Of a stretch of DNA of 64,000 nucleotides, positions 22,460 through 30,892 are shown piece after piece. The translations under genes were made by a program, and so were the position numbers. Origin of the DNA: Escherichia phage Turkey3; the sequence record PQ471515.1. One strand, 5' to 3'. How positions within the stretch are numbered: the stretch's first letter is position 1; every line of letters starts with the position of its first letter. Under the pieces are notes generated by a model, which saw only the letters and a list, made by a program, of their open reading frames with translations, made no database searches and was not told the DNA's origin.

Positions 22460-22657
22460 ATGCGTATTTTAACTCAAGAAGAGCACAACCACACACTCAT
22501 ATCCAACATGGCATATATTCTACATATGTCACATATCCGTGGTATGGCATATAAGCGTGAATTGGTTATGAAACTTTTCATAGGAACTAACTATCAAGAA
22601 AAGTATATCGAACTATACTTACAAGAATTACGAAGGGACATAAAAGGAAGACGATGA
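22460..22657 (+). CDS. family A small protein (GTNYQE motif)
   Basis: RBS GGAG; ...FIGTNYQEKYIELYLQEL. Confidence 0.6.
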   Translation: MRILTQEEHNHTLISNMAYILHMSHIRGMAYKRELVMKLFIGTNYQEKYIELYLQELRRDIKGRR

Positions 22658-22854
22658 AAATGCGTATTTTAAATAAAGAAGATTATCAAGAACTGTTACG
22701 TAAAAACATGGTAAAGATTTATAACACAGACACAAACTTAGAACGAATTGAGTTATACCTTTTGATTACATTGGGAACAAGCTATCAGGGAAGATGGGTG
22801 ATTCAATATATGGATGCATTGAAAAATGAAATATTATCCACGAGGAAACAATGA
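22654..22854 (+). CDS. family A small protein
   Basis: ATGA overlap; LGTSYQGRWV motif variant. Confidence 0.6.
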   Translation: MKMRILNKEDYQELLRKNMVKIYNTDTNLERIELYLLITLGTSYQGRWVIQYMDALKNEILSTRKQ

Positions 22855-23060
22855 AAACTATAACACGAACCCAATCATACGGTCTTATCTTGAGATACAT
22901 GGACTTAATGTTGGATATCAGAAAAGACCTTCCTAAAACTGCAATTGAAGTTGCAAGAGCAGAGATCCGCATGTTGGCTGTACTGAACACAAACCATCAG
23001 GAAGAGTATGTTGACGATTGGATTCGATTTTTAATAGAAGATATTAAGAGGAAACTATGA
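22851..23060 (+). CDS. family A small protein
   Basis: ATGA overlap; LNTNHQEEYV. Confidence 0.6.
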   Translation: MKTITRTQSYGLILRYMDLMLDIRKDLPKTAIEVARAEIRMLAVLNTNHQEEYVDDWIRFLIEDIKRKL

Positions 23061-23269
23061 TTTTTTTAACACCAGAAGAATATAAGATACGTTTTGTTTC
23101 TGTCCAGAATAAAATCTTAATTATATACAATTCAAATGCAGACCTTAACTTATCAAGGGTATTAGAAAAAGATTTACTTATGGGTGCATTTTTGGATACA
23201 GACTTTCAGGTGTATTATGTAGGGGAATACTTAATTGCACTCCAGAATTACATTAAGAGTAAACTATGA
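23057..23269 (+). CDS. family A small protein
   Basis: ATGA overlap; LDTDFQVYYV. Confidence 0.6.
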   Translation: MIFLTPEEYKIRFVSVQNKILIIYNSNADLNLSRVLEKDLLMGAFLDTDFQVYYVGEYLIALQNYIKSKL

Positions 23270-23478
23270 ATAGCATTAACTCAAATCTATATGCCGAACG
23301 CGTCGCTGCAAGACAACTTGAAATTCTCATAGTATATGAAGAGACTGATGATTTGAACTTAGCATTAGTATTGGAAAATGATATACTATTGGGTGCATTC
23401 CTCGGCACAGATTATCAGGAGCACTTCTTGAATGAGTATATAATTGCACTCCAGAAATACATTAAGAGCAAACTATGA
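23266..23478 (+). CDS. family A small protein
   Basis: ATGA overlap; LGTDYQEHFL. Confidence 0.6.
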   Translation: MNSINSNLYAERVAARQLEILIVYEETDDLNLALVLENDILLGAFLGTDYQEHFLNEYIIALQKYIKSKL

Positions 23479-23693
23479 AACATTTAAGTAATTACGAGAA
23501 GAATAAAATTATCGTTGCTGCAATAAACAAATATTTTACACTTCCTCACACAGAAGGTTTATGTGTAAGGGAACACAGGATAAACACCACCGATATACGC
23601 ATGATGGCTGTACTGGGGACGAACTTTCAGGAAGAGTATGTTGTTGCACACATAGTTGCCCTCACTGATTTAATAAGGGACAAATGCAAATGA
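23475..23693 (+). CDS. family A small protein
   Basis: ATGA overlap; LGTNFQEEYV. Confidence 0.6.
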   Translation: MKHLSNYEKNKIIVAAINKYFTLPHTEGLCVREHRINTTDIRMMAVLGTNFQEEYVVAHIVALTDLIRDKCK

Positions 23694-23908
23694 AAGACAT
23701 AAACACTCAAGAATATCTTAAACGATTAGAACAAGGGAAGAACTTTAGACTTCAAGTTTACGATGATGAATCACTAACATCCAATGAAAAGTATGTTATA
23801 CTAACAGACTCAACATTAATACCATTTGTAGGAACAAACTATCAGGAGGTTATGGTAGACAACCACATCACGGCCTTAAAATGTCATGTCAGGGATTTAG
23901 GTAAATGA
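23684..23908 (+). CDS. family A small protein
   Basis: Overlapping start; VGTNYQEVMV. Confidence 0.6.
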   Translation: MQMKDINTQEYLKRLEQGKNFRLQVYDDESLTSNEKYVILTDSTLIPFVGTNYQEVMVDNHITALKCHVRDLGK

Positions 23909-24162
23909 AACACTTAACTGATGATGAATTTGAAACTATAATTCGTAAACTAACCCCCATCACAAGGATAGTCTACGGTGACCCCAGCCTTACATGGAAC
24001 CAAATGCGAGCTAAAGTTAATGAGCTATGGTTGCTGTACTTTATGGGGACTCAATATCAAGATAAGTTTTGCACAGAATATATCGAACAATTAACGAATG
24101 TTATACAGGATAAACTAGATGATTATTTGCTCACAAAACATGAAGACTTTATCAGGAGTTGA
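23905..24162 (+). CDS. family A small protein
   Basis: ATGA overlap; MGTQYQDKF. Confidence 0.6.
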   Translation: MKHLTDDEFETIIRKLTPITRIVYGDPSLTWNQMRAKVNELWLLYFMGTQYQDKFCTEYIEQLTNVIQDKLDDYLLTKHEDFIRS

Positions 24163-24391
24163 GTATCAAACTGCCCTATTCTCTTTAATCCATACCCTTA
24201 GAAAAAACAATGCCTTACATGGTGCACCTGAAGTGGATGTTATCAACGGTGAACTTTATCTTATGAAATTCATTGGAACAAACTATCAAGATCTGTTCAT
24301 TCAACGATACTTATCAGCATTAAGAAACCAAATCCAATATAAAACCATCAAGGCCAAAAAAGAATGGAATAAACAATGCGACACAGACTAA
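24140..24391 (+). CDS. family A small protein
   Basis: Internal ATG chosen to match family N-terminus (MKTLSGVEY); IGTNYQDLF. Confidence 0.5.
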   Translation: MKTLSGVEYQTALFSLIHTLRKNNALHGAPEVDVINGELYLMKFIGTNYQDLFIQRYLSALRNQIQYKTIKAKKEWNKQCDTD

Positions 24392-28948: not shown

Positions 28949-29290
28949 ATGAAAACTAATATACAACTCAACGTATACAGTTCAGAAGAACATACATATA
29001 TCAAATGCAGTCTATGTAAAGATGTAATGGACTACAAAGGTAAGCCATTCACAATTACTTATGATTCTGATGTTAATGATTTATATATATCATTTCTTAA
29101 TTACGAAAATAAAATATACAAGCACGTTGATATTAAAGATTTAAGTACTTTATCACCAGAGGAATACTTTCAGGAATCGTTAGTATGGGATTTGGAGTTT
29201 CCTATGCCATTAGTACATAAAATGGTAGTCCAAATGAAAGAAGCTAAACCGGAGTTTAACGGTTATGAAGAACACACAATTGAGTATTAA
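28949..29290 (+). CDS. family B protein
   Basis: DLSTLSPEEYFQESLVWDLEFPM; RBS AAGG. Confidence 0.6.
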   Translation: MKTNIQLNVYSSEEHTYIKCSLCKDVMDYKGKPFTITYDSDVNDLYISFLNYENKIYKHVDIKDLSTLSPEEYFQESLVWDLEFPMPLVHKMVVQMKEAKPEFNGYEEHTIEY

Positions 29291-29521
29291 ATGAAAAGAT
29301 TATCATACGAAGATTACACCAATCTTATCAGGACTTTACAACCACAAATACAACAAATAAATTCTCTTCCTATACCCCAAGAAGAACGTGCAGTACTGAA
29401 AGATGAGTTAATTTTAAAATGCACAGTAGGAACAAACTATCAAGCTGATAGTGTTCGATATTTAATTTGGGGTTTAATGAGTATAATAGAGAACAAAGCA
29501 GTTGACAGTACTCTATTGTAG
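29291..29521 (+). CDS. family A small protein
   Basis: VGTNYQADSV; starts right after previous stop. Confidence 0.6.
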   Translation: MKRLSYEDYTNLIRTLQPQIQQINSLPIPQEERAVLKDELILKCTVGTNYQADSVRYLIWGLMSIIENKAVDSTLL

Positions 29522-29561
29522 TGCTATAGTACATGAACGTTAATCATTAGGGTAGAAAATT

Positions 29562-29807
29562 ATGTTGAATTTTTTAAATTTCCTTATCGTCTTGTGTATT
29601 GTTCTTGGGATTGCACCATTTGTATTGTATTTCATGGATTCAGATGAAATGCAGAAGATGAATTGTACAAGGACAGGACAGAGTAGAGTAGAGACGATTC
29701 TTATGCCTGTTACGGTTATTGTTAACAACATGCCCATTACCAACATGGTCCCTACCCTAACGACAACGTACCAGTACTCTTGTACAGACGGAGAGAGGTG
29801 GAGATAA
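29562..29807 (+). CDS. small membrane protein (N-terminal TM helix)
   Basis: MLNFLNFLIVLCIVLGIAPFVLYF; RBS GGGTAG; + strand consistent with array. Confidence 0.5.
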   Translation: MLNFLNFLIVLCIVLGIAPFVLYFMDSDEMQKMNCTRTGQSRVETILMPVTVIVNNMPITNMVPTLTTTYQYSCTDGERWR

Positions 29808-30130
29808 TGCGTAAGTTCAATTGTATTGTACGTAAGAATTCTTGTTACATTGTAGTAGCTGATTTTAATACGGGTTCTGGGTTGAAGATATTTGAGTACA
29901 GAAAATGCAATAATTCTTTTCATTGGAAATTAGGTGCAAGAAAAACAAATACAATTTCAGTACCGAATTTATGTTCTATCTCTGAAGAAGAAGAGTTTCA
30001 GTACTTGTTAGTACATGATGATTCTTTAGGATTTACATTTGTAGATATGAAGGAAGTACAAAAGCAGATGATTGCACATTGTCATCTTCCAAAGAATTTT
30101 GTTCAACGCGTATGTGAATTCTACATATAA
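29807..30130 (+). CDS. family B-like protein
   Basis: SISEEEEFQYLLVHDD; RBS GGTGGAG. Confidence 0.55.
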   Translation: MRKFNCIVRKNSCYIVVADFNTGSGLKIFEYRKCNNSFHWKLGARKTNTISVPNLCSISEEEEFQYLLVHDDSLGFTFVDMKEVQKQMIAHCHLPKNFVQRVCEFYI

Positions 30131-30139
30131 GAGAAGAAT

Positions 30140-30451
30140 ATGAAATTTAATATAGCAAAAACATCGAGTATATGTATTTTTGGTTATGCAGAAGAGTTAG
30201 GTGATATTGACATTCTTTTGTACAAAAAGGATGGTGTTATGCATTTCAAGTACCAGGATGAAGAGGCAGACAATTATCTTTTACCTAATTTAGTACAAAT
30301 GCAGGAAGAGGAATTATTCCAGTACAGCTTAATATACGACATTGATATTTGCACGATGCCAGTATTAATTAATATACAAAAAGTTATGCTCGATATGTAT
30401 GATAAGCTAATACAAGGTATGTCAGGGAGGATCATTGAAATCGATATATAA
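30140..30451 (+). CDS. family B protein
   Basis: MQEEELFQYSLIYDID. Confidence 0.55.
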   Translation: MKFNIAKTSSICIFGYAEELGDIDILLYKKDGVMHFKYQDEEADNYLLPNLVQMQEEELFQYSLIYDIDICTMPVLINIQKVMLDMYDKLIQGMSGRIIEIDI

Positions 30452-30647
30452 GAATTTACCTAATGAATATATGTTGAAGTACAAAGAGTTTATTAAAGAT
30501 GTATATGTAGATCCTTTCAATATCAAATTTGCAGAGTTCGAAGTATCATTTTATCTAGGGACAATAGTACAGGACCAATACGTTGATAATCTAATAAGGT
30601 GTTTGAAAAAGGAGATACAATGCAGACCCAAAGGTATAAAAAGGTAG
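30435..30647 (+). CDS. family A small protein (variant LGTIVQDQYV)
   Basis: Overlapping start. Confidence 0.5.
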   Translation: MKSIYKNLPNEYMLKYKEFIKDVYVDPFNIKFAEFEVSFYLGTIVQDQYVDNLIRCLKKEIQCRPKGIKR

Positions 30648-30892
30648 ATTCTTTATTGTACGCTTCAAAGTACAGGGATTTTTGTTTACGCGGTTCTGGA
30701 GGGGGAGAGGAAGATTTCGCTCTGAGATTATCAGAATTCAATATGTTATTTTATCTTGGTACAAAAGAACAAGAAGATACAGTACAGAAATTTCTCAATC
30801 ACCTTGTACAAAAAATTAATATGCAAATTTTGATGCTTGAGTTACAGAATGAGATAAATGAATATGAATCCAGAAATAGTTCAGGATCTTAA
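30620..30892 (+). CDS. family A small protein (LGTKEQEDTV)
   Basis: ATG 30620 with GGAG RBS. Confidence 0.5.
   Translation: MQTQRYKKVDSLLYASKYRDFCLRGSGGGEEDFALRLSEFNMLFYLGTKEQEDTVQKFLNHLVQKINMQILMLELQNEINEYESRNSSGS

Follow-up and report, generated by a model that had tools for sequence, protein, structure and literature searches.

A 33-member family of small, fast-evolving tandem paralogs at the left end of an Asteriusvirus jumbo coliphage genome

The window analysed here, a stretch of 64,000 nucleotides from Escherichia phage Turkey3 (PQ471515.1), is the left end of the genome of an Asteriusvirus (PBECO4/121Q-like) jumbo coliphage. Direct terminal repeats (DTRs) of ~21 kb have been demonstrated for fEgEco12 and Sharanji, and the end of the repeat maps to about position 22361 of the window from vB_Ec-M-J, where the DTR is annotated at 1-21525. 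The region 1..22361 is densely packed with many small genes, each with its own promoter, and contains 11 perfect TTGACA-N16/17-TATAAT sites on the + strand. Some 100 nt beyond the end of the left DTR starts a run of 28 small genes of a single family, hereafter family A, with exactly 33 members in the window, all on the + strand.

1..22361, +: DTR-homologous region, matching the ~21-kb DTR of close relatives
22403..22429, +: candidate sigma70-like array promoter, TTGACT-N15-TATTAT (N16 in relatives)
22451..22454, +: GGAG ribosome-binding site of the first gene, in a GGAGT block 5-9 nt before the ATG, conserved in five phages
22460..22657, +: family A #1, 65 aa, HMM 59.2 bits
22654..22854, +: #2, 66 aa, 59.7 bits
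22851..23060, +: #3, 69 aa, NTNHQE, 72.2 bits
23057..23269, +: #4, 70 aa, DTDFQV, 74.5 bits, 51% identity with #5
23266..23478, +: #5, 70 aa, 67.2 bits
23475..23693, +: #6, 72 aa, 78.4 bits
23684..23908, +: #7, 74 aa, 77.3 bits
23905..24162, +: #8, 85 aa, 85.1 bits
24140..24391, +: #9, 83 aa, 65.5 bits; start at ATG 24140 chosen by family alignment (the longest ORF begins at 24119)
24376..24627, +: #10, 83 aa, divergent, 64.8 bits with #10 included in the profile
24611..24826, +: #11, 71 aa, 73.0 bits
24823..25041, +: #12, 72 aa, 83.6 bits
25032..25250, +: #13, 72 aa, 79.0 bits
25247..25483, +: #14, 78 aa, 83.1 bits
25480..25737, +: #15, 85 aa, 87.3 bits, modelled member (AF2 pLDDT 95.6)
25734..25949, +: #16, 71 aa, GTQHQQ, 68.5 bits
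25950..26180, +: #17, 76 aa, 68.2 bits
26170..26430, +: #18, 86 aa, 70.2 bits
26396..26653, +: #19, 85 aa, 74.9 bits
26622..26864, +: #20, 80 aa, 70.5 bits
26861..27091, +: #21, 76 aa, NTNYQA, 53.2 bits
27069..27284, +: #22, 71 aa, 76.3 bits
27275..27517, +: #23, 80 aa, 84.8 bits
27481..27723, +: #24, 80 aa, 79.3 bits
27693..27923, +: #25, 76 aa, 70.2 bits
27920..28135, +: #26, 71 aa, 71.1 bits
28132..28353, +: #27, 73 aa, 67.9 bits
28355..28606, +: #28, 83 aa, 67.3 bits, end of the run; start at ATG 28355 (the longest ORF begins at GTG 28322)
29291..29521, +: #29, 76 aa, dispersed copy, 72.4 bits
30435..30647, +: #30, 70 aa, TTG start, 60.6 bits
30620..30892, +: #31, 90 aa from ATG 30620, 63.7 bits
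44383..44601, +: #32, 72 aa, GSNKQD, 53.3 bits, leave-one-out E 4.8e-7
44579..44773, +: #33, 64 aa, 63.9 bits

Of these genes, 28 form one gap-free 6.1-kb run (22460-28606), and the other five start at 29291, 30435, 30620, 44383 and 44579, with #32 sitting inside a downstream paralog arm. When 953 six-frame ORFs were searched with a profile HMM, the 33 members obtained E values of 3e-26 to 1.2e-15 and the next-best ORF 0.71. Leave-one-out profile tests recovered 32 of the 33 members at E<=5e-7. The sole miss was the aberrant #10, which has a 2-aa insertion and lacks the motif Q, carrying TGTDKNAIAK where other members have GT..QE; its AF2 model keeps the helix order of the family (pLDDT 78), and its orthologues show dN/dS values of 0.15-0.26. 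Matches to the strict pattern GT..Q[EDQ] numbered 25 over the three + frames together and one on the - strand; shuffled sequence gave 0.6 +/- 0.7 (maximum 3). A MAFFT alignment places the GT..QE motif in a single register across members, as a first, sequence-only reading had proposed. Fewer residues are truly invariant than it stated: conservation reaches >=90% at G, T, Q and a single L, and the N, Y and E of the motif are no more than majority residues. Identity between paralogs averages ~25% and does not exceed 56%. Family A is a real, fast-evolving gene family with members of ~65-90 aa: the proposed set of about 33 tandem ~70-aa paralogs was borne out by ORFs at the expected positions and by alignment, profile and comparative analysis, and the conserved N-terminus and C-terminal GT..QE helix were recovered by alignment, profile search and structure prediction.

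All members but one (32/33) matched phrog_4148 of PHROGs v4 over the full length of its 74 positions (best E 4e-26). This entry is family A itself, catalogued from PBECO4/121Q-type genomes; it lists the function as unknown and is silent on the array, fold and evolution. A sequence search of 1.84e9 proteins returned 100 clusters, with named sources that were all Escherichia/Salmonella phages or E. coli assemblies, and family A is confined to Asteriusvirus-type jumbo coliphages. [quoted passage not shown] That sentence concerns the same lineage and gives the same interpretation (tandem duplication), without coordinates, a family definition or analysis. It calls the copies "very similar", in contrast to the low mean identity of family A, and we counted 27 family A genes in 121Q; it may therefore describe the larger superfamily further downstream instead.

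Translational coupling links the genes of the 28-gene run, which form one block free of gaps. Start codons overlap the upstream stops, as the sequence-only reading had noted, at 27/27 junctions, 16 of which are of the 4-nt ATGA type. Ahead of the first gene, TTGACT-N16-TATTAT/TAAAAT is kept in vB_Ec-M-J, 121Q, phAPEC6 and the divergent Turkey5; in the window itself, one nucleotide of the spacer is deleted, which leaves a suboptimal 15 nt. Inside the run, promoter-like density equals background and intergenic gaps are absent. The mean energy of the predicted Shine-Dalgarno (SD) duplex is -4.5 kcal/mol at family starts and -1.2 at control positions (p=4e-11). The ORFs look translated, given their strong SD sites, dN/dS below 1 and reading frames that stay intact across phages 10-60% divergent in protein.

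AlphaFold predicted a confident four-helix domain for #15, with no beta-bridges except those at residues 2 and 49, instead of the helical hairpin that had been guessed; no relatives of this fold outside the family were found in PDB or BFVD. A core is fixed in all copies, consisting of the N-terminal MKxLT..EY, the GT..Q turn bridging to residue 2 and the hydrophobic heptad of the last helix, while exposed positions and net charge vary freely. The variable positions follow the period of a helix, and how variable a position is among orthologues correlates with how variable it is among paralogs (rho 0.58). All exposed positions vary, one face of the C-terminal helix included, and variability is not confined to the middle ~25 residues as first thought. 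The 33 proteins span pI 4.4-10.0 and net charges of -7 to +10.

An all-helical fold with a tight, glycine-containing turn predicted ahead of the last helix, together with 17/33 basic members, could suit small DNA- or RNA-polymerase-binding transcription regulators, an expanded HTH-like set programming the many transcription units of the phage. There is a precedent in Bacillus phage G (Iyer et al., 2021, PMC7824862), where a Zn-ribbon family of ~35 copies with a proposed DNA-binding role and Myb expansions were put forward as transcription factors. Like family A, the Zn-ribbons are a lineage-specific expansion of a small protein to ~30-35 copies in a jumbo phage; the phage groups differ, however, and family A is all-helical and lacks metal ligands. 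We consider such regulators unlikely, as none of the 33 members matched an HTH or other DNA-binding Pfam/NCBIfam profile, 12 are acidic (pI down to 4.4), and the modelled linker between helices 3 and 4, six residues long and tied to the N-terminus, does not resemble the turn of a canonical HTH.

The long amphipathic C-terminal helix with its heptad pattern could also point to subunits of one hetero-oligomeric intracellular assembly (scaffold, filament or replication condensate) that are all needed together, in which case co-transcription and translational coupling would favour stoichiometric co-production, and retention of 1:1 syntenic orthologues across the genus would be expected. This we regard as very unlikely: in the model the heptad residues lie buried inside the monomer (pLDDT ~98), charge differs strongly among copies, the run differs by up to 17 genes between viable phages, and the proteins are absent from the virion. 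None of gp462c-gp489c of phAPEC6 is among its 62 virion proteins, and no TM segments were predicted in family members; family A proteins are soluble and non-virion.

Pooled dN/dS values of family A against four relatives were 0.42, 0.37, 0.43 and 0.26, compared with 0.16-0.19 for DTR genes and 0.29 for downstream genes. Each copy is under purifying selection, with non-synonymous evolution about twice as fast as that of the adjacent DTR genes. The highest dN/dS in the family (#27, 1.3-2.2 versus PBECO4/121Q) is based on few substitutions, and the wide spread of dS among genes is as much a sign of recombination with old alleles as of positive selection. In the comparison with Turkey5, DTR genes are 98% identical and the family A run 40%; hypervariability extends over the entire 22-64-kb arm and not family A alone. 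Hua et al. proposed that jumbo genomes can expand by tandem duplication to fill larger capsids, and the array might accordingly be functionless filler, tolerated through the spare capacity of a large capsid. This idea is hardly tenable, and the selection analysis has largely refuted it: none of the 33 reading frames is broken, and they are conserved even in phages that have diverged by up to 60%; dN/dS lies at 0.26-0.43, core residues are fixed, and every junction has a strong SD site.

The comparison of array length between related phages that had been suggested showed uninterrupted runs of 12-29 genes among nine loci, changing in whole-gene steps, and family totals of 22-33 in the four loci covering the whole region. 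The complete PBECO4 genome has 33 copies on one strand, all inside 20.5 kb. Alignment offsets between phages shift by steps of ~200-226 nt; #7, for instance, is missing from vB_Ec-M-J, with no reciprocal-best-hit partner and an offset step of one gene. The same phage has a 44%-identical paralog in place of #16, and in some relatives a 269-aa fusion (P0091) occupies the slot of #29. Adjacent paralogs are closer than distant ones (0.30 versus 0.245, permutation p<1e-4), #17-#19 forming a recent triplet at 53-54% identity, and syntenic 1:1 orthologues of most copies persist throughout the genus. The family grew via tandem duplication and is still changing through unequal crossing-over, with whole-gene gain and loss, and through allele replacement.

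Immunity-gene arrays typically consist of small helical paralogs in tandem that have diverged and that turn over by whole genes. The layout of family A resembles them, and its strongly diversified surfaces and the position of the run at the front of the unique genome, following a host-type promoter, would also fit a bank of antitoxin- or immunity-like neutralisers, each copy directed against a single variant of some polymorphic toxin of the host (effectors of abortive infection or of toxin-antitoxin systems, colicin-like toxins), a sub-case of counter-defence modelled on bacterial orphan immunity-gene arrays. We nevertheless find this improbable, since the copies are mostly 1:1 orthologues and do not show the presence/absence pattern expected for strain-specific toxins, no toxin or immunity domains are recognisable in the family or neighbouring genes, and the PADLOC defence hits are noise on single members. 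Superinfection is a risk for large phages whose infection cycles are long, and a role in competition between phages (superinfection exclusion or inhibition of co-infecting phages or satellites) would be expected to leave the same signature of rapid evolution, allele mosaicism and changing copy number. It seems quite improbable, given that the proteins lack the membrane-spanning segments present in many exclusion proteins and show no similarity to known exclusion proteins.

We infer that family A is best read as a diversified repertoire of host-binding proteins, expressed from an early operon and subject to birth-and-death evolution, a tentative reading to which we give slightly less than an even chance. 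The 28-gene block would be transcribed early in infection by host RNA polymerase, a timing suggested only by promoter type and position. One stable scaffold would display many different surfaces, and each copy would engage a different host (or competitor) protein, resulting in host takeover or counter-defence. No member resembles known anti-defence, host-takeover or defence proteins. Points against a repertoire of host binders are the retained 1:1 syntenic orthologues, which also fit subunits all needed together, the overall dN/dS below 1, the suboptimal spacer in the window's own promoter and the hypervariability of the whole arm.

T5 and T4 pre-early/early clusters consist of small genes, mostly of unknown function, with host-sigma promoters, and the host-takeover module of Bacillus phage SPO1 is described as 26 small genes within the terminal redundancy. 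The DTR part of the window looks exactly like these small-gene modules at or beside a terminal repeat. Their genes are, however, unrelated to one another and usually have one promoter each, whereas the family A run consists of 28 paralogs in one promoter-poor polycistron just outside the repeat.

Counterparts exist among large eukaryotic DNA viruses, namely the ASFV MGF, the poxvirus Bcl-2-like and ankyrin families and the poxvirus 'genomic accordions'. These are tandem paralogs in a hypervariable arm near the genome terminus, with whole-gene copy-number change and faster evolution than conserved regions, and the poxvirus Bcl-2-like family combines a small helical scaffold with diversified binding surfaces. 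Family A shares the terminal hypervariable location, the whole-gene steps and the fast evolution, and we infer that its mode of evolution resembles that of these terminal multigene families. The hosts of these viruses belong to another domain of life, and neither sequence nor fold relates them to family A, whose copies are old and diverged (at most 56% identity) rather than recently amplified.

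The 33 small paralogs of family A constitute a real multigene family that looks translated, has an orphan fold and is not part of the virion. Organised as a single coupled block where the unique genome begins, they evolve fast, with turnover of whole genes. The sequence-only reading had placed 33 ORFs in this family, and all of them were found, on the + strand:

22460-28606, + strand: uninterrupted run of 28 family A genes (#1-#28)
24376-24627, + strand: #10, a divergent member of the run
25480-25737, + strand: #15, the modelled member
26622-26864, + strand: #20
26861-27091, + strand: #21
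29291, + strand: #29
30435, + strand: #30
30620, + strand: #31
44383, + strand: #32
44579, + strand: #33

The invariant-position motif proposed for these proteins held in a single register in a proper multiple alignment (MAFFT), but strict conservation (at least 90%) was restricted to G, T, Q and one L. The consensus, MKxLxxxEY...ExxLxxxLGTNxQExxVxxxIxxLxxxIxxK, has a mean column identity of 27%. The family HMM matched the 33 members with E values from 3e-26 to 1e-15, the runner-up among 953 six-frame ORFs lying at 0.71, and leave-one-out profile tests recovered 32 of the 33 (E ≤ 5e-7). The strict pattern GT..Q[EDQ] occurred 25 times in the + frames and once on the - strand, against a shuffle average of 0.6. 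The sole leave-one-out failure was #10, which carries TGTDKNAIAK where the others have GT..QE and was retained only for its position, its length, the order of its helices and a weak similarity. Given the good conservation of its orthologues (dN/dS 0.15-0.26), #10 is nevertheless a real, though divergent, member. ORF 4254-4484, in the direct terminal repeat (DTR), was rejected as a further member, as it was linked by jackhmmer only and its family HMM E value of 16 indicates profile drift.

All 27 junctions of the 28-gene run overlap, 16 of them being of the ATGA type, and + strand ORFs leave no gap of 40 nt or more; stretches of at least 40 nt without + strand ORF cover make up 29% of the DTR part. 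Shine-Dalgarno pairing at family starts averaged -4.5 kcal/mol versus -1.2 kcal/mol at random positions of the run (p = 4e-11), and these sites fall within the codons of the preceding gene's conserved C-terminal I..K. The ATGA junction of #20 and #21 (26840-26864) contains a poly-A tract. In one metagenome contig the orthologues of these two genes are joined by a frameshift into a 154-aa protein (P0101), which reflects a genuine mutation or else a sequencing error in the homopolymer.

Window positions 22000-31000 matched 35 phage records, every one a jumbo phage of Escherichia or Salmonella that belongs to the PBECO4/121Q/phAPEC6 type (genus Asteriusvirus), the best match being vB_Ec-M-J (96%). 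The record of the latter annotates a DTR at 1-21525, and the first family A gene lies about 100 nt past its end, so that the DTR end maps to approximately position 22361 of the window. As DTRs of about 21 kb are established for fEgEco12 and Sharanji (by experiment or PhageTerm), this mapping identifies the window as the left genome end, where the DTR is followed by unique sequence (hereafter the arm). The DTR part contains 43 promoter-like sites (at least 10/12) on the + strand and seven on the - strand, a layout typical for an immediate-early gene set driven by the host polymerase. Perfect promoters are located as follows:

1759, 4855, 12243, 12828, 13939, 15589, 15929, 16200, 16632, 19053 and 20579, + strand: perfect TTGACA-N16/17-TATAAT promoters (n = 11) of the DTR part (1-22400)

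Two further features of this part are a five-member family of 60-69-aa proteins at the window start (93-1091, with genes at 93, 284, 486, 682 and 885), and a GC-rich perfect palindrome, AGGCCGCTCTCTAGCGGCCT, at 21958-21977. The palindrome is 3' of gene 21469-21933, has few counterparts in the region, and looks like a terminator or processing hairpin.

Three promoter-like sites occur in the family A run, about the background density of the - strand. Upstream of the first gene, TTGACT-N16-TATTAT/TAAAAT followed by GGAG is kept in vB_Ec-M-J, 121Q, phAPEC6 and Turkey5, in the last despite different flanking sequence. The relatives' element matches 10/12, and in the window version a 1-nt deletion leaves a 15-nt spacer. 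Judging from these sequence elements, the run would be one long polycistron, transcribed by host RNA polymerase. A search of the literature naming the genus Asteriusvirus found no transcript data. A candidate recurrent phage-specific promoter motif, TTGACTTTTAT..GAAT, was discarded for lack of enrichment (6 matches in the window versus 8 expected). Near-consensus promoters (TTGACA-N17-TATAGT, 11/12) are present at 26870-26898, within gene #21, and at 29502-29530, in the 40-nt gap past #29, where the end of the long polycistron may be marked.

Searched exhaustively with the HMM, a set of 1.84 billion representative proteins yielded only 100 clusters; all 26 distant matches inspected retained the G[TS]..Q core, either unchanged or slightly altered (D-T, or H in place of Q). 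The named sources were all Escherichia or Salmonella phages, or E. coli assemblies with a phage contig of about 350 kb. Many homologues came from contigs of about 345-360 kb that are complete Asteriusvirus genomes accompanying isolates, in line with lytic phage genomes recently reported from bacterial assemblies. The complete PBECO4 genome has exactly 33 matches, on a single strand and within 20.5 kb, the next ORF having an E value of 0.097. Its RefSeq record (NC_027364, 20001-28133) annotates only about 22 CDS over the array, including several truncated ones, and the profile finds 31 of the 33 members there; roughly a third of family A is unannotated in this type genome. The PHROG profile phrog_4148, annotated 'function unknown', matched 32 of the 33 members (best E 4.2e-26, residues 1-73 versus positions 1-73 of 74). 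For all 33 members, Pfam and NCBIfam scans gave scattered single-member noise only and no HTH family, and PADLOC gave six different models with one member each (E ≥ 6e-4) and no consistent defence or anti-defence match. A profile search against PDB sequences returned nothing. Ten neighbouring proteins showed no Pfam domain, and their PHROG matches were all of 'unknown function'.

Adjacent copies are more similar than distant ones (0.30 versus 0.245, permutation p < 1e-4), and the copies closest to each other, in pairs and triplets, are neighbours (49-56% identical). The uninterrupted run comprises 28 genes in the window, 26 in vB_Ec-M-J, 29 in PBECO4, 28 in phAPEC6, 23 in 121Q, 12 in Turkey5 and 25-26 in three E. 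coli-assembly contigs (range 12-29 over nine loci), with totals of 22-33 in the four loci that cover the whole region. In nucleotide alignments the offset jumps by about one gene (200-226 nt) and neighbouring paralogs cross-align, a signature of unequal crossing-over. Most copies keep syntenic reciprocal best hits (29-30 of about 31-33 across the genus, 25/27 in 121Q), indicating old duplications that underwent birth and death with no homogenisation. Pooled dN/dS values for family A were 0.42 with vB_Ec-M-J, 0.37 with PBECO4, 0.43 with 121Q and 0.26 with Turkey5, compared with 0.16-0.19 for DTR genes and 0.29 for downstream genes, and these selection data rule out that the array is junk. The pattern resembles birth and death of the accordion type in its whole-gene copy-number differences and in protein evolution faster than that of DTR genes. 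Identity and dS spread widely from gene to gene inside single genome pairs, which points to mosaic allele exchange. Median protein identity to Turkey5 is 98% for DTR genes, 40% for the family A run and about 33% for the remaining arm; hypervariability therefore sets in right at the DTR boundary and characterises the entire arm. The break at about 22361 suggests either a recent DTR exchange or extremely fast evolution of the arm to its right. Per-column analysis showed that core positions are fixed and that the positions varying among orthologues are those varying among paralogs (rho 0.58). The variable columns of the last helix (53, 56/57, 60, 63, 67) follow a helical periodicity that marks its exposed face.

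The AlphaFold2 model of #15, obtained with the 33 paralogs supplied as alignment, is very confident (pLDDT 95.6, pTM 0.78) and has helices at residues 6-15, 17-24, 31-45 and 52-77. Beta-bridges are confined to residues 2 and 49, meaning that in the model the GT motif's T is paired with the conserved N-terminus. The invariant motif would accordingly be primarily a structural joint, made up of a turn and the first part of the last helix and anchored to the N-terminus. The #10 model (pLDDT 78) has the long helices in matching order. Independent BFVD models of the 121Q, PBECO4, UB and slurp01 homologues superpose on #15 (target-length-normalised TM-score up to 0.96), and a BFVD structure search with the #15 model returned no superposing model beyond family homologues. 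As its confidently predicted fold has no detectable structural relatives, family A may represent a new small-protein fold and could serve as a scaffold for engineering.

A sigma-70 region 4/LuxR-type HTH, prompted by the pattern LGT...V...I..L, was rejected, the spacing being two residues off and profile or fold support being absent; superposition on HTH, sigma-70 region 4 or TetR-type domains was not obtained clearly above generic helical matches. The members have no TM segments, and range in pI from 4.4 to 10.0 and in net charge from -7 to +10. This heterogeneous charge, together with the lack of any HTH signal, argues against DNA-binding proteins. A structural role is likewise argued against by the virion data, since none of the phAPEC6 family A proteins (gp462c-gp489c) is among 62 virion proteins, although MS detects small proteins less readily. 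We infer that family A would be expressed early by the host polymerase and would act as a binder set, in which a common scaffold presents differing surfaces toward host or competitor proteins, for host takeover or counter-defence. Toxin neutralisation or anti-phage competition may be alternatives to such general host-factor binding; neither an adjacent cognate toxin nor a recognisable immunity domain, as in a polymorphic-toxin immunity array, was found in the family or in the ten neighbours scanned. A more specific form of the binder-set reading, which we consider improbable, is a two-faced, germline-encoded 'binder library', whose invariant pole would dock a common partner while the hypervariable helical faces capture different host or defence proteins. 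The candidate pole is the N-terminal MKxLT..EY strand bridged to the GT..Q turn, and candidate partners are a host hub protein or a phage ATP-dependent protease. This set of interchangeable adaptors would have analogues in the ANK/F-box or Bcl-2-like families of poxviruses and, if true, would be the first described for a bacteriophage.

Downstream in the arm (28596-58281), jackhmmer links 46 + strand genes encoding proteins of 54-213 aa into a second paralog superfamily, which splits into 17+15 or 18+12 under stricter settings; about 25 of the genes carry acidic-x-[FYL]-F-Q-x-S-L-[IV]-x-D. A distant relationship of family A to this superfamily, or to the adjacent ~115-aa family, was rejected at an hhalign probability of 0.1%. 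Family A represents about 5-6% of genes in these 350-kb phages (33 of 551 annotated in PBECO4) and, together with the second superfamily (up to 46 genes in the next 30 kb), makes the arm a major uncharacterised phage investment. The arm is also where closely related Asteriusvirus isolates differ most. Phages of this genus are under development for therapy. If the copies bind host or defence proteins, family A would be a phage counterpart of the terminal multigene families that govern host range and immune evasion in poxviruses and ASFV. Birth and death in an arms race between virus and host could then be studied conveniently here, as the host is E. coli, numerous relatives are sequenced and copy number differs by whole genes.

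[quoted passage not shown] Since family A counts only 27 genes in 121Q, that sentence may mean the bigger downstream superfamily. A description of family A is absent from published work on CBB, fEgEco12, Sharanji, UE-S1 and phAPEC6, from a jumbo-phage pangenome and from Iyer 2021. Lineage-specific expansions are already known in jumbo phages, such as the Zn-ribbons of phage G (PMC7824862), as is accordion-like expansion.

The slot of #29 (29291-30130) corresponds in loci L006-L008 (10001-10810) to a 269-aa fusion, P0091, seen in 24 contigs, in which a family A copy precedes a C-terminal domain of about 200 aa. Its use as a 'Rosetta stone' was abandoned, the C-terminal domain matching itself alone in 5.8 billion proteins and leaving no remnant in the window. 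Another part of PBECO4 (L011, 5955-18214) holds a further tandem array, gp286-gp296, whose ten paralogs of ~40 kDa are labelled 'regulator of chromosome condensation' and are probably the counterparts of the similar-size ~40-kDa 'DNA condensation proteins' in phAPEC6 virions.
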